From assembly GCA_014323795.1 (NCBI GenBank), contig JACONK010000026.1, forward strand, positions 4,475 to 68,474: a DNA stretch of 64,000 bases. Direction: 5' to 3'. Source of the stretch: Paracoccaceae bacterium. Its GTDB lineage: Bacteria > Pseudomonadota > Alphaproteobacteria > Rhodobacterales > Rhodobacteraceae. The position numbers and the translations under genes were made by a program. Below, piece after piece: positions 643 to 5,506 of the stretch (position 1 is the stretch's first letter; each line of letters begins with the position of its first letter). A model generated the notes under the pieces. The model was not told the DNA's origin. It searched no databases and saw nothing but the letters and a program-made list of their open reading frames with translations.

Positions 643-842
643 CTGATGGCCTCCGTGCCGTGGCGATATCAGGGTCTTAGGGCTGTCCTGGCAGCCGGAC
701 AATAAAATTATGTGCTGACGTGCCCGGCAAATTTCCGCGATGCAGCGATCCCTCTTCCAGTGCAAGGTCGGCCCTTAAGACACGCGGGCATATGGGGAAG
801 CTGACATCTTGTCTTGTGAATGCGCAGGGCTATGGTTCCCGC

Positions 843-3446
843 ATGGGTGGCCGGGATGAATCTGAAACCTTGGGGGCAGAGGCTGTGCCGTTGAGCCGGC
901 AGGCCATGGCAGGCCGTGCACCGCCATCATACCTTGACGGGTTGAATGAAGCGCAGCGGGAAGCGGTGGAACAGTTGACAGGCCCTGTTCTGATGCTGGC
1001 CGGGGCGGGTACCGGCAAGACAAGGGCACTGACAACACGCATCGCGCACCTGCTGCAAACCGGTCACGCACGACCTGACGAAATCCTCGCTGTCACTTTC
1101 ACCAACAAGGCCGCACGGGAAATGAAGAACCGTGTCGGGGGGCTTTTGGGCACAATGGTGGAGGGGATGCCCTGGATTGGCACCTTCCATTCGATCTGCG
1201 TCAAAATCCTGCGCCGCCATGCAGGGCTGATTACCGACAAGGCCGGCACACGGCACCTTAAGACCAACTTTACGATCCTCGATACAGATGATCAGCTGCG
1301 GCTTTTAAAACAGCTGATCCAGGCCGCCCATATCGATGAGAGACGCTGGCCTGCCCGGATGCTCGCCCGCCTGATCGAAGGCTGGAAAAACCGCGCATTG
1401 AATCCGGATAAAGTGCCCGCATCCGAGGCGAACGCCTACAGCGACAACGGCCCTGGCCTCTATGAGGCGTATCAGGAACGCCTGGTCACGCTCAATGCCT
1501 GTGATTTTGGCGACCTGCTGTTGCATGTGATCCATATCTTTCAGCACCACCGGGACGTGCGGGCGAATTACCAGGACTGGTTCCGGTTCATCCTTGTCGA
1601 TGAATATCAGGACACGAACGTGGCCCAGTACCTGTGGCTCAGGCGGCTGGCGCAGGGCCACCGAAACATCTGTTGCGTGGGCGATGATGACCAGTCGATC
1701 TACGGCTGGCGCGGGGCGGAGGTGGGCAATATCCTGCGGTTTGAAAAGGATTTTCCCGGCGCAAAGGTCGTGCGGCTGGAACAGAACTATCGCTCCACCC
1801 CCCATATACTGGAGGCCGCGAACGGGATAATCGTGCATAATCGTGAAAGGCTTGGAAAGTCCCTGCAAAGTGTGAGCGACACAGGCCACAAGGTTCAGCT
1901 CATCGGCCATTGGGATGCAGAGGAAGAAGCGCGCTGGGTTGGAGAAAGGATTGAGGATCATCATGCCGGGCGATCCCCGGAAGCCAGGAACAGGTATAAT
2001 CCGCGCCTGCAGGATTTCCGGCAAGAACAGGAGCGGCGTACGAAAGCCGGATTGGGGCCGATCAATCAGCAGGAATTTATCCGGCAATCATTTGAGAGCG
2101 ACCAGGTCTCCCGCGATTTGAAAACCCGGAACCTTGTCACGGAATTGCAGAAAAATGAACCGGAAGAATTGGATATGCGCGCCGCACCGCGGGCTTGTGA
2201 GGTTCAGAAATTCAGTCTCGATGAAATCGCGATCCTTGTGCGTGCCGGCCACCAGATGCGCGCTTTTGAGGATCGTTTCCTGGCCATCGGCCTGCCCTAC
2301 CGCGTGATCGGTGGCCCGCGCTTCTATGAGCGCATGGAAATCCGCGATGCCATGGCCTATTTCCGCGCAGCCGTCAGCCCGGACGACGGCCTGGCGTTTG
2401 AGCGCATCGTCAACACGCCGAAGCGCGGGCTCGGCGACAAGACCCGGCAGATCATCCATATCGCGGCGCGTGAAAACGGCGTCTCCCTGTTGGAAGGGGC
2501 GCGCATCCTCGTGGCTGAGGGCGACCTGGCACCGAAGGTGCGCACGGCTTTGCGGGATCTCTGCGAAGGTTTCGCCCGCTGGCACGGGCTGATCCGCGCA
2601 GACGACCTTGCCCACAAGGAAATCGCCGCGCAAATCCTGGAGGAGTCGGGCTACACCGATTACTGGCAGGAGATGGCCGCCAGGAAGGATATAAAGGCGG
2701 CGGGCAGGCTTGAAAACCTCAAGGAACTTATCGATGCACTGGAGCAATTTGAAAATCTGCAAGGCTTCCTGGAACATGTCAGCCTGATCATGGATAATGA
2801 CACCGAAGATGCCGCGGAAAAGGTGTCGATCATGACGCTGCACGCCGCCAAAGGCCTTGAATTCCCGGTCATCTTCCTTCCGGGGTGGGAGGACGGGCTT
2901 TTCCCCTCGCAACAGTCCATGGATGAAAGAGGTATGGGAGGCGTGGAGGAGGAGCGCAGGCTCGCTTACGTCGGCATCACGCGTGCGGAAGAGTGCTGCA
3001 CCATCAGCTTTGCTGCCAGACGGCGGATTTATGGCCAGTGGCAATCGACCCTGCCTTCCCGGTTCATCGACGAATTGCCCGCCGAACATGTTGAAATGCT
3101 GACTCCCCCGGCCCTTGATCGGGGCGGTTTTGGCACAGCATCTTCTGCCAACACCCTTGCTGGGTCGGATTTGGCAGGGAACGCGTCGCGGGCGGATGTC
3201 TACAATTCACCGGGATGGAGGCGGCTGCAGGCCCGGCTCGGCCCGCACGGGCCCCGCCGGCCGTACGAGGCCGAGAGCGTGATCATCGACAGTGAGGCGG
3301 TGTCATCCCCCGGGCCCGGTGATCGGGTGTTCCACCAGAAATTCGGTTATGGCACGGTGATTGCCATCGAAGGCGACAAACTGGAGGTCGCTTTTGAAAA
3401 GGCAGGGATAAAAAAGGTGCTGGCCGGCTTTGTGACGTCCCCGTAA
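843..3446 (+). CDS. uvrD: ATP-dependent DNA helicase UvrD/PcrA family, with a ~70-aa internal insertion
   Basis: AGAGTGKT, LVDEYQD, LEQNYRS, TLHAAKGLEF, EERRLAYVGITRA motifs; start at 843 chosen from recalled homolog N-termini (ORF track starts at 720). Confidence 0.93.
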   Translation: MGGRDESETLGAEAVPLSRQAMAGRAPPSYLDGLNEAQREAVEQLTGPVLMLAGAGTGKTRALTTRIAHLLQTGHARPDEILAVTFTNKAAREMKNRVGGLLGTMVEGMPWIGTFHSICVKILRRHAGLITDKAGTRHLKTNFTILDTDDQLRLLKQLIQAAHIDERRWPARMLARLIEGWKNRALNPDKVPASEANAYSDNGPGLYEAYQERLVTLNACDFGDLLLHVIHIFQHHRDVRANYQDWFRFILVDEYQDTNVAQYLWLRRLAQGHRNICCVGDDDQSIYGWRGAEVGNILRFEKDFPGAKVVRLEQNYRSTPHILEAANGIIVHNRERLGKSLQSVSDTGHKVQLIGHWDAEEEARWVGERIEDHHAGRSPEARNRYNPRLQDFRQEQERRTKAGLGPINQQEFIRQSFESDQVSRDLKTRNLVTELQKNEPEELDMRAAPRACEVQKFSLDEIAILVRAGHQMRAFEDRFLAIGLPYRVIGGPRFYERMEIRDAMAYFRAAVSPDDGLAFERIVNTPKRGLGDKTRQIIHIAARENGVSLLEGARILVAEGDLAPKVRTALRDLCEGFARWHGLIRADDLAHKEIAAQILEESGYTDYWQEMAARKDIKAAGRLENLKELIDALEQFENLQGFLEHVSLIMDNDTEDAAEKVSIMTLHAAKGLEFPVIFLPGWEDGLFPSQQSMDERGMGGVEEERRLAYVGITRAEECCTISFAARRRIYGQWQSTLPSRFIDELPAEHVEMLTPPALDRGGFGTASSANTLAGSDLAGNASRADVYNSPGWRRLQARLGPHGPRRPYEAESVIIDSEAVSSPGPGDRVFHQKFGYGTVIAIEGDKLEVAFEKAGIKKVLAGFVTSP

Positions 3447-3473
3447 GACAAACCGTTCCGGTCAAAAATGTAA

Positions 3474-3496
3474 AACGGCACCCGAAGGGTGCCGTT
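3474..3496. terminator. Hairpin terminator between convergent uvrD and DUF1127 genes
   Basis: AACGGCACCC-GAA-GGGTGCCGTT perfect 10-bp stem; T-rich tail on the minus strand. Confidence 0.75.
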
Positions 3497-3518
3497 CCAG
3501 GCAAACTGGTGCTTCAGA

Positions 3519-3734
3519 TCAGGCCGATTCGGCGGCTTGTCTGGAGACACGCTTGATATCGTGGCGCGCAATGCCCAGGTCCCGCAGTTCCCGGTCAGAC
3601 AGGCGCGACAGTTCTTTCACTGTGGTGAGGTAGATGCGGCGTTGCCTTATGTAGGCGACCAGGGCAGTAAGTACATTCGAAAAAACTGCGGTCACTGTGG
3701 CGCGTTGTGTTGAGCTGGTGTTCAGGATTGACAT
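3519..3734 (-). CDS. DUF1127 (YjiS-like) small protein
   Basis: RQRR...ELSRLSDRELRDLGIARHDI signature; GAGGA RBS. Confidence 0.9.
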   Translation of the reverse strand: MSILNTSSTQRATVTAVFSNVLTALVAYIRQRRIYLTTVKELSRLSDRELRDLGIARHDIKRVSRQAAESA

Positions 3735-3782
3735 TGGATTATCCTCTTGAAAGTTGGTTTTCCGTGTTCATCGGATATCCTG

Positions 3783-3847
3783 AAGATAGGCAAACCCCCG
3801 GTCAGATGTAGGTATATTTCGGCATTTCTGTTATGCGTCTGACGCAT
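3783..3847 (-). promoter_or_regulatory. Putative DUF1127 promoter: LysR-type dyad ATGC-N7-GCAT (3833-3847) and -10-like CCTATCTT (3790-3783)
   Basis: T-N11-A dyad; same two elements at nearly the same spacing recur at 4020-4085. Confidence 0.6.
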
Positions 3848-3875
3848 GTCTGTCGCGGGCAGGTTTCCACGATTC

Positions 3876-4013
3876 AAAAGAAAAGCGGTAGTGCAGGGAG
3901 GGTGCACTACCGCTTCAATCAATCAGATACGCATGTGGGAGGAAGTAAGCGCAGCTGATTTTCAGCCACTGTGGCGGATCATCCTGGTACGTCGGATGAT
4001 CCGTGGCTTTCCT
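3876..4013 (-). ncRNA. Candidate trans-acting sRNA: three hairpins, anti-SD loops (CUUCCUCCC, CCCUCCC), intrinsic terminator
   Basis: Stems at 3964-4008, 3921-3960 and a perfect 13-bp stem 3883-3915 followed by UUUUCUUUU; upstream promoter-like elements. Confidence 0.6.
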
Positions 4014-4019
4014 GAACCC

Positions 4020-4089
4020 AAGATAGGATTGCCGCGCTGCAGCAACAATCGCAAAGGTCACAAGTCAGATATGCGTTAAAAGCATATCT
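4020..4089 (-). promoter_or_regulatory. Putative sRNA promoter: dyad AGATATGC-N7-GCATATCT (4067-4089), TTGTTG-17-TATCTT
   Basis: 8-bp perfect dyad centred ~65 bp upstream of the inferred start; -10 CCTATCTT at 4027-4020. Confidence 0.55.
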
Positions 4090-4124
4090 CTTTCGGGCAA
4101 TTCCAATTGGGTTCGGCGCAGTTT

Positions 4125-4808
4125 TCAGATCGGTTTGCCGATCAGAAATGCCCGGGCCGCGGCACTGACCGGGCCTTCAAAGAAAGCGGCTGCCGGGGCA
4201 CTGTCGCACAACTGGCCTTTTGAGAAAAACAGAATTTGGTGTGCGATCCGGCAGGCCAGTGCAAGGTCGTGGGTGGACATCAGAATCGGCACCCGCATGC
4301 TGCAGGAGACGATGGCAGCCTCGATCTTTGCCGCGCTGGCCGGATCGAGCCCGGCAAAGGGTTCATCAAGGATCAGGACTTGTGGTTCGGTCACCAGGGC
4401 CCGTGCGAACGCCATGCGCCGCATCTCGCCGCCGGACAGGGTGGCGGCCGGGCTTTGTGCCTTGTGGGCAAGCTGCATATCGGCCAGCACCCCGTCGATC
4501 AGGTTCGAATCAGGGTGCGTCAGCGGATAGGCCACATTGGCCCGCACCGTGCGCCGCAGAACCACTGTCTGCTGATGCATATAGCTGCGGGTCGATTTGT
4601 TGGCCACAGCCGGCACCCCGTCCCATGTGACTGTTCCGGTTTCCGGCCGGGCAATCCCGTGGGCAAGCGCCAGGAACAGTGATTTTCCCGCCCCGTTGGG
4701 CCCCAGGATGCAGGTGATGCCGGACAGCGTGGCCTCATGACGGATCGGCCCCAGAAACGGTTGACCTTCCACAGCCAGTGCCGCGTCGGAAACCGAAAAG
4801 ACCGGCAT
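4125..4808 (-). CDS. tupC: Tungstate-type ABC transporter ATP-binding subunit
   Basis: GPNGAGKS, LSGGE, LILDEP; TGATG overlap with the upstream permease stop. Confidence 0.75.
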   Translation of the reverse strand: MPVFSVSDAALAVEGQPFLGPIRHEATLSGITCILGPNGAGKSLFLALAHGIARPETGTVTWDGVPAVANKSTRSYMHQQTVVLRRTVRANVAYPLTHPDSNLIDGVLADMQLAHKAQSPAATLSGGEMRRMAFARALVTEPQVLILDEPFAGLDPASAAKIEAAIVSCSMRVPILMSTHDLALACRIAHQILFFSKGQLCDSAPAAAFFEGPVSAAARAFLIGKPI

Positions 4809-5506
4809 CAACGGGTCACCTGATAGCATTCGCCCAGTCGGGATATCTTGTGGGTGATTGCGTTCACCGCAATCGAGATGGTGACAAGGATCAGCCCCAG
4901 CGCGAGTGCGAGCGTCAGATTGCCCCTGGACGTCTCCAGCGCGATTGTTGTCGTCATCACACGCGTCTGCCCGTTGATGTTGCCGCCCACGATGATGACC
5001 GCGCCAACCTCCGCCAGTGCGCGGCCAAAGCCTGCCAGCAGGGCGATGGAGACGGCAAAACGGGCATCCCGGATCAGGGTGCGCACCTGCTTGCCCCGCG
5101 ATGTATCGAGTGCTGCGAAAAGCGGCTTGTATTCGCGGGCAAGGGGCGCAATCGCCTGATGGGTCAGCGACAGGATAATCGGAAAGACGAGGATTGTCTG
5201 CGCAATCACCATGGCTGTCGGTGTGAACAGCAGCCCAAAACTGCCGAGCGGCCCGGCACGGGATAACAGCAGGTAGACCGCCAGCCCCACCACCACCGGA
5301 GGCAGTGCCATCATGGCGGTGCCCAAAACCAAAAGCACCCGATGCCCGGGGCAGCGCGTGATCGCAAGAAGGGTGCCAAGAGGTGTGGCCAAAAGGGCGG
5401 ACAGGACAGTTGCGCTACATGAGACGAACAGGCTCAGCCGCACGATCCGCGCAAGTTCCGCATCGCCTGAAAAGATCAGCCCCAAGGCCGTTGCAAGAAT
5501 TTCCAT
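4808..5506 (-). CDS. tupB: Tungstate-type ABC transporter permease
   Basis: MALPPVVVGL, FGRALAEVGAVIIVGGNI, TRVMTTTIALETSRG motifs. Confidence 0.85.
   Translation of the reverse strand: MEILATALGLIFSGDAELARIVRLSLFVSCSATVLSALLATPLGTLLAITRCPGHRVLLVLGTAMMALPPVVVGLAVYLLLSRAGPLGSFGLLFTPTAMVIAQTILVFPIILSLTHQAIAPLAREYKPLFAALDTSRGKQVRTLIRDARFAVSIALLAGFGRALAEVGAVIIVGGNINGQTRVMTTTIALETSRGNLTLALALGLILVTISIAVNAITHKISRLGECYQVTR

Follow-up and report, generated by a model that had tools for sequence, protein, structure and literature searches.

Organization of the locus

The window, a stretch of 64,000 nucleotides from a Paracoccaceae genome of 2.58 Mb, carries two neighboring transcription units on its minus strand. 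One unit is predicted to specify a small RNA (sRNA), and the other encodes a 71-aa protein of the DUF1127 family. The original prediction had read a duplicated promoter layout ahead of these units, and its two minus-strand dyads lie exactly where it placed them, centered at 4078 and 3840. The features of both units, in the order in which they would be transcribed, are as follows:

4062–4088, minus strand: site 1, ATGC (4085–4082)-TTTTAAC-GCAT (4074–4071) followed by the extension ATC-TG-ACT-T (to 4062)
4043–4048, minus strand: -35-like TTGTTG of the sRNA promoter, with TTG at 4048–4046 and then 18 nt to CCTATCT
4027–4020, minus strand: -10 box 1, CCTATCTT, with the hexamer TATCTT at 4025–4020, 45 nt past dyad 1
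3877–4013, minus strand: candidate sRNA, about 137 nt and three hairpins, both ends predicted
3824–3850, minus strand: site 2, the perfect palindrome ATGCGTCAGACGCAT (3847–3833) followed by AAC-AG-AAA-T (to 3824)
3790–3783, minus strand: -10 box 2, CCTATCTT, with the hexamer at 3788–3783, 44 nt past dyad 2
3519–3734, minus strand: DUF1127 gene, 71 aa (Pfam PF06568, E 8.7e-12, 45 bits against a cut-off of 23.3)
3471–3499, minus strand: intrinsic terminator of the DUF1127 gene, from terminator prediction

On the minus strand, site 1 reads GATATGC (4088–4082), TTTTA, and ACGCATA (4076–4070), with its T-N11-A pattern running from T4084 to A4072. Site 2 reads GACATGC (3850–3844), GTCAG, and ACGCATA (3838–3832), and its half-sites, ATGC (3847–3844) and GCAT (3836–3833), are separated by 7 nt within a palindrome that is perfect over all 15 nt. 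The identical CCTATCTT octamers at 4027–4020 and 3790–3783 and the distances of 53 and 52 nt between the dyad centers and the first base of TATCTT are likewise as originally described. From the -10 boxes, transcription is predicted to start at about 4013 for the sRNA and at about 3776 for the DUF1127 gene. The -35 position of the DUF1127 promoter, as read from the sequence, is occupied by CCTACA (3812–3807) and contains no TTG. The DUF1127 gene itself follows 143 nt after the tail of the sRNA terminator and has a ribosome-binding site, AAGAGGA, before its ATG.

Upstream, the two units are flanked by genes for the ATPase and permease of an ABC transporter (4125–5506, minus strand), and downstream by a convergent gene for a UvrD-type helicase of 908 aa (720–3446, plus strand). 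The same ABC transporter and UvrD-type flanks are present in a congener (G034). Anti-Shine-Dalgarno (anti-SD) sRNAs of the cuckoo type usually target ABC transporter mRNAs.

The combination of dyad and -10 box is confined to the two promoters

Neither the dyad nor the octamer is rare by itself. Across the 2.58-Mb genome, ATGC-N7-GCAT occurs 39 times where 34 occurrences are expected, and CCTATCTT occurs 34 times where 47 are expected. Their combination is rare: the dyad followed at the matching distance by TATCTT (or CTATNT) is found twice in the genome, with 0.024 occurrences expected. Both occurrences are the promoters in the window, which stand at a distance of 238 bp from one another on one strand, each ahead of a transcription unit. 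The genome-wide scan suggested together with the original prediction, for the dyad and TATCTT, thus returned only the two window sites.

Just upstream of the dyads, the two promoters also have in common the stretch TGCCCG..A.AGA.ATGC (4086–4104 and 3848–3866, minus strand), in which 13 of 19 bases are shared. This stretch is not kept in congener G034 and may represent the trace of a local duplication.

The sRNA is of the cuckoo type

The candidate sRNA is predicted to fold with -58.7 kcal/mol (z -7.2). Its second loop is CUUCCUCCCA and its third is CCCUCCC; the third loop belongs to the last hairpin of the sRNA (3916–3882), which is an intrinsic terminator. The Rfam model ar14 matches the candidate partially, at 35.5 bits (E 9.5e-5), which is below the gathering score of 58.8, and the Rfam model of CcsR1 gave no match to it. 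C/U-rich anti-SD loops and an adjoining DUF1127 gene are both present at the locus. The CIN1 neighborhood likewise consists of a cuckoo RNA beside a DUF1127 gene.

The locus had been likened to the AbcR sRNAs and DUF1127 proteins that are controlled together in Rhizobiales. The DUF1127 half of this analogy stands, supported by the match to PF06568, and the AbcR half does not. An AbcR identity was rejected for the sRNA, with no match to Rfam ar15 between 3300 and 4300 at E values up to 10; in contrast, the Rhizobiaceae loci carry ar15 RNAs scoring 81–118 bits. Judged from its loops, its partial family match, and its neighbor, the candidate sRNA is of the ar14/NfeR1/CcsR (“cuckoo”) type and not of the AbcR/ar15 type.

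The dyads match the published LsrB/VtlR site

The published box of the LysR-type transcriptional regulators (LTTRs) VtlR and LsrB is GCAT-N3-TG-N3-T (PMC7486931). Site 1 agrees with this box exactly (GCAT-ATC-TG-ACT-T), and site 2 agrees with one mismatch, AG for TG (GCAT-AAC-AG-AAA-T). The predicted position of the sites with respect to the promoters is also similar. In Sinorhizobium meliloti, the LsrB box of PabcR1 extends from -61 to -49. The T-N11-A motif of PnfeR1, TGCA-N6-GCAT, extends from -72 to -57 (PMC10746234). If transcription of the sRNA starts 7 nt past TATCTT (about 4013), dyad 1 would lie at -72 to -58 and its box would end at -49; dyad 2 would lie at about -71 to -57 from the predicted start near 3776. 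This register of -72 to -57 is itself a prediction because the start sites were taken from the predicted -10 boxes. The reading of the dyads as LsrB/VtlR-type sites is therefore borne out by the published motif in sequence and, with the predicted start sites, in position.

Both kinds of gene found at the locus have precedents as targets of this regulator. The ar14 sRNA NfeR1 of S. meliloti requires LsrB, as demonstrated with EMSA, point mutants, and an lsrB deletion (PMC10746234). In Brucella abortus and Agrobacterium tumefaciens, the VtlR/LsrB regulon includes the abcR sRNAs, vrsA, and small DUF1127 proteins, among them BAB1_0914 and Atu1667; in Brucella and Agrobacterium, VtlR activates the small proteins directly (PMC7486931). 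A later paper counts the VtlR-activated small proteins of Brucella as DUF1127 proteins. The best precedent for the locus is the activation of NfeR1 by LsrB, rather than that of AbcR.

A single LsrB/VtlR ortholog is encoded on another contig

The genome has only five matches to the LysR-type helix-turn-helix domain. One of these belongs to the following gene on contig C1, in agreement with the proposal that the regulator is encoded elsewhere:

C1:119296–120288, minus strand: LsrB/VtlR ortholog, reciprocal best hit with four Rhizobiaceae

In each of the four Rhizobiaceae genomes, the C1 protein has one clear best counterpart, with 42–43% identity and E of about 1e-78, and the next match is at 1e-44. 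These counterparts directly adjoin ar15/AbcR genes, and a position beside the AbcR gene is the published context of lsrB. In the reverse search of the window's genome with the Rhizobiaceae LTTRs, the C1 protein was found at E of about 1e-80 and the next protein at 1e-29. Its top match in the PDB is 9HH1 (1.9e-78), which is LsrB of A. tumefaciens, and the next LTTR follows at 8.6e-27. The identity to LsrB is 77% over the first 65 residues, which form the DNA-binding domain, and 34% over the remainder. NCBIfam could not be used to name the regulator, as it contains no VtlR/LsrB model and all matches were far under their cut-offs; a large protein database names the C1 protein merely “LysR family transcriptional regulator.” The ortholog is present in a single copy in all 53 good genomes of the family. 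A 2025 paper describes LsrB as unique to Rhizobiales.

The hallmarks of LsrB in Rhizobiales are an operon with trxB and the redox cysteines Cys144 and Cys273 (A. tumefaciens numbering). No trxB lies upstream of the C1 ortholog, where a divergent open reading frame without a Pfam match is found. In an alignment, the positions of Cys144 and Cys273 are occupied by V and L in the C1 ortholog and by V and A in the ortholog of Pseudooceanicola. The equivalence to the Rhizobiales regulon that was originally proposed thus extends to the binding site and to the orthology of the regulator, and it does not extend to the redox cysteines or the linkage to trxB. Lacking both this context and the cysteines, the C1 ortholog could have diverged in function, and since the redox cysteines are missing, its input signal may differ.

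A third site lies beside the regulator gene

The two promoters had been proposed to form a single-locus regulon. This view has to be extended to at least three promoters, since a third box is found directly 3' of the gene for the LsrB ortholog. It is located at C1:119269, has the sequence ATGCATGGAATGCAT-GGC-TG-GTA-T, and is an exact box of the LsrB type. It is followed by a candidate SorY/SorX-like sRNA and a terminator (C1:119190–119270; locus L113, 1770–1607, minus strand). The third site differs in its spacing, with about 53 nt between the dyad and the -10 box versus 44–45 nt at the promoters in the window. The regulator-adjacent sRNA scores 46.4 bits for SorY and 35.3 bits for SorX and contains the motifs CUCCCA and CUCCCUGUUGGAC. 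Its identity as SorX was partly supported. It is called SorY/SorX-like here because its SorX score falls under the cut-off of that family and because SorX of Rhodobacter sphaeroides was published as the ompR-1 3' UTR.

This arrangement is common among relatives. A dyad is present 3' of the ortholog gene in 28 of 30 genera, where about 3–14% would be expected by chance, and an RNA of the SorY/SorX family was found beside the ortholog gene at all 17 loci tested. The SorY-like sRNA beside the regulator parallels the lsrB-abcR1 arrangement of Rhizobiaceae.

The sites 3' of the ortholog also provided a position matrix that is independent of the window, as it was built only from such sites in 25 other genera. 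When all 5.16 million positions of the genome were scanned with this matrix, site 2 of the window ranked first, the C1 site second, and site 1 sixth. Three other high-ranking matches were considered as regulon members and set aside as chance matches: the match at rank 3 and the start codon of a methyltransferase gene overlap, and those at ranks 4 and 5 lie inside long open frames.

The promoter architecture is conserved in relatives

A DNA search of relatives with the 656-bp locus returned one congener (G034) and one spurious match (L003). The locus is too diverged for DNA searches, and relatives were therefore compared by protein, RNA-family, and pattern searches. In the congener, the gene order is ABC ATPase, dyad, CCUCCC sRNA, dyad, DUF1127 gene, and convergent uvrD. 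The DUF1127 loci of the same genus retain the ATGC and GCAT half-sites, the extension A-N-C-(G/T)G-N3-TTG, and a CCTA-type -10 box at a fixed distance; the 7-nt spacer and the flanks of the dyad vary among them. In Rhizobiaceae, most of the loci examined have two dyads: one stands about 155 nt ahead of the DUF1127 match, and the other, still further upstream, precedes a genuine ar14 sRNA (88–122 bits). The distance from dyad to -10 hexamer in Rhizobiaceae is 45 nt, as at the locus described here. The dyads are thus kept before both types of gene in congeners, other Rhodobacterales, and Rhizobiaceae, in accordance with their reading as parts of LsrB/VtlR-type promoters.

Core promoters and the CcsR operons of the family

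The octamer shared by the two promoters had been regarded as part of their duplicated layout. Its presence at both is real, but a special shared element it is not: the same kind of -10 box is found at dnaK and clpB. The dnaK and clpB promoters of this genome have the form TTG-N18-CCTAT(A/T)T, and the promoter at site 1 has the form TTG-N18-CCTATCT. As a -10 box of the RpoH/sigma-70 type, CCTATCTT is ordinary for Alphaproteobacteria. If A4024 is taken as -12, the TTG of the sRNA promoter lies at -36 to -34. The published RpoHI/HII logos of R. sphaeroides show TTG at -36 to -34 and a CC(C/T)ATNT -10 box (A-12, T-9). The geometry of the sRNA promoter fits these logos, and the alphaproteobacterial sigma-70 consensus is equal in geometry. 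An assignment of the sigma factor from geometry was therefore rejected, as the consensuses of RpoH1 and sigma-70 do not differ in spacing. The DUF1127 promoter is without the TTG of RpoHI/RpoHII-type promoters, and this lack of a -35 TTG would fit dependence on an activator.

Among 151 genera of the family, 98 were found to have CcsR-type RNAs. The Rfam gathering cut-off of CcsR1 is exceeded at five loci, which were taken as true CcsR1 loci. Upstream of the DUF1127-CcsR operons, the dyad and its extension are present at 26 of 28 loci of other genera, including all five above the cut-off. At these CcsR loci (L144–L173), the site consists of ATGC-N7-GCAT plus (A/G)GCAGCATTG and stands 45 nt before a CCCCATGTT or CCTATCTT box. 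The ccaF1-CcsR and SorY promoters of R. sphaeroides have been published as RpoHI/HII-dependent, with no activator mentioned.

A model for activation of both promoters

The same signature at both promoters suggests that a circuit of the LsrB/VtlR type also exists in marine Rhodobacterales. On its features, the locus would contain two independent promoters of the same class, one for a cuckoo-type anti-SD sRNA and one for a 71-aa DUF1127 protein. The plan of each promoter would comprise the dyad at about -72 to -57, the extension N3-(T/A)G-N3-T, and the CCTATCTT box 44–45 nt further on. Most likely, the dyads are bound by the single LsrB/VtlR ortholog of the genome, and with good probability the ortholog acts through them as the activator of both promoters. 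Like LsrB of S. meliloti at nfeR1, it would be a class I activator that recruits RNA polymerase from its upstream position. The sRNA core promoter looks RpoH/sigma-70-like, and the DUF1127 promoter, having no -35 TTG, should depend more strongly on the activator. The ortholog probably also drives the SorY-like sRNA that adjoins the 3' end of its gene. Because this regulator is without the redox cysteines of LsrB, thiol oxidation is probably not the signal to which it responds.

Other explanations can be weighed against activation by the ortholog. The two could be plain RpoHI/RpoHII stress promoters, with the dyad serving as the site of another protein or as an enhancer-like element unrelated to the LsrB ortholog. 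This is unlikely, even though the TTG-N18-CCTATCT geometry of site 1 equals that of dnaK and clpB and fits TTG at -36 to -34, A-12, and T-9, the CcsR and SorY promoters have been reported to depend on RpoHI/HII, and uncharacterized enhancers upstream of RpoH boxes have been mentioned for S. meliloti. It leaves unexplained why the dyad coincides in sequence and position with an experimentally defined LsrB site and why the motif stands beside the gene for the LsrB ortholog in 28 of 30 genera. Furthermore, site 2 is without the -35 TTG that both RpoH paralogs need. The explanation is also not exclusive, since an RpoH-type core combined with an LsrB-type activator is compatible with all of the data.

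Alternatively, the LsrB ortholog could bind the dyads as a repressor or a dual regulator instead of a simple activator. LTTRs can activate or repress, the switching cysteines of Rhizobiales LsrB have been lost so that the regulatory logic may have changed, and the third site differs in spacing. However, a site centered near -65, upstream of the -35 region, occupies the classic position of an activator and matches PnfeR1 and PabcR1, and the poor -35 region at site 2 calls for activation; a repressing or dual role is thus quite improbable. That the likeness of the promoters is due to chance, or was left behind by a local duplication and means nothing for regulation, has a very low probability. 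The single elements are indeed not rare, with 39 dyads and 34 octamers in the genome, and the 13 of 19 shared bases upstream of the dyads, which are not conserved in the congener, would fit a duplication. Against this, two composites are observed where 0.024 are expected, and a matrix from unrelated loci ranks the window sites first and sixth in the genome. In addition, genera of two orders have kept the half-sites, extension, and spacing, in contrast to the variable 7-nt spacer and flanks. With activation by the LsrB ortholog as the preferred reading, the original interpretation is largely right and partly supported, with four corrections: to the AbcR analogy, the single-locus regulon, the shared octamer, and the equivalence to Rhizobiales.

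Comparison with characterized systems

The nfeR1 promoter of S. meliloti resembles the locus in several respects. Both have an ar14-type anti-SD sRNA with an adjoining DUF1127 gene, a T-N11-A dyad that ends with GCAT and precedes a TTG/CTAT-type core (at -72 to -57 in nfeR1 and, from the predicted start sites, here), and an orthologous LTTR encoded in the genome. In contrast to nfeR1, the sRNA described here scores under the ar14 cut-off and has at its 5' end an additional hairpin that lacks an anti-SD loop; an NtrC site (TGC-N11-GCA) was not seen either. The host, a member of Rhodobacterales, is marine, and its regulator is without redox cysteines.

With the VtlR regulon of Brucella and Agrobacterium, the locus shares the box GCAT-N3-TG-N3-T and, by analogy, a co-regulated pair of sRNA and DUF1127 protein; in both systems an sRNA gene adjoins the regulator gene. 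They differ in that no AbcR (ar15) is present here, where the regulator-adjacent sRNA is SorY/SorX-like, and in that the DUF1127 protein is of the long, 71-aa type whereas those of the VtlR regulon are of the arginine-rich type with 47–48 aa.

The third comparable system, ccaF1-CcsR1-4 of R. sphaeroides, belongs to the same family as the locus and also has a 71-aa DUF1127 protein beside sRNAs of the CCUCCUCCC type (PMC8034643). The core promoters are homologous (ATTGT.GC..GCAGC...CC.AT.TT), and loci of the ccaF1-CcsR type have the upstream dyad as well, in all five CcsR1 loci above the cut-off. In ccaF1-CcsR, the order begins with the protein gene, processing of its 3' UTR yields the sRNAs, and one promoter serves them all, with RpoHI/HII as its only published regulators (PMC8034643). 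Unlike in ccaF1-CcsR, the sRNA is the leading unit in the window, and the sRNA and the protein gene have a boxed promoter each, as is the case in Rhizobiaceae.

A circuit that may be older than the Rhizobiales

In rhizobia, Agrobacterium, and Brucella, LsrB/VtlR has a key part in regulating the interaction with the host. Four results speak for an origin of the circuit before Rhizobiales and Rhodobacterales diverged, and for its being core to the marine roseobacters, an abundant lineage: the ortholog is present in 53 of 53 genomes, the box precedes the same classes of targets, an sRNA adjoins the regulator gene, and the box recurs at the CcsR operons. On balance, we favor the broader view that the LsrB/VtlR circuit is an ancient alphaproteobacterial module, made up of the LTTR, the ATGC-N7-GCAT box, anti-SD sRNAs, and DUF1127 proteins. 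The module would be core to Rhodobacteraceae, where the cysteine-less ortholog would control the cuckoo/CcsR, DUF1127, and SorY-like promoters together. If this is true, R. sphaeroides and the roseobacters have an unrecognized master activator in their stress-sRNA network. It would respond to some signal that is not thiol oxidation and act at cuckoo/CcsR, DUF1127, and SorY-like promoters that have so far been ascribed to RpoHI/RpoHII only. R. sphaeroides is genetically tractable, and the regulation of CcsR and SorY has been studied in it for years as purely sigma-factor driven.

Variations in the arrangement of DUF1127 genes and sRNAs

The genome contains a second DUF1127 gene (contig C37:33060–33350, locus L035), which has no dyad upstream. 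It is followed by a region with a weak ar14-like hairpin (28.8 bits), in an order like that of ccaF1-CcsR. Tandem arrangements occur in other genomes. In Shinella granuli (L077), two tandem ar14 sRNAs, each with its own dyad, are found ahead of the DUF1127 gene. In another genome (G035, locus L006), three tandem DUF1127 genes lie about 404 bp apart and are accompanied by three dyads with equal spacing.
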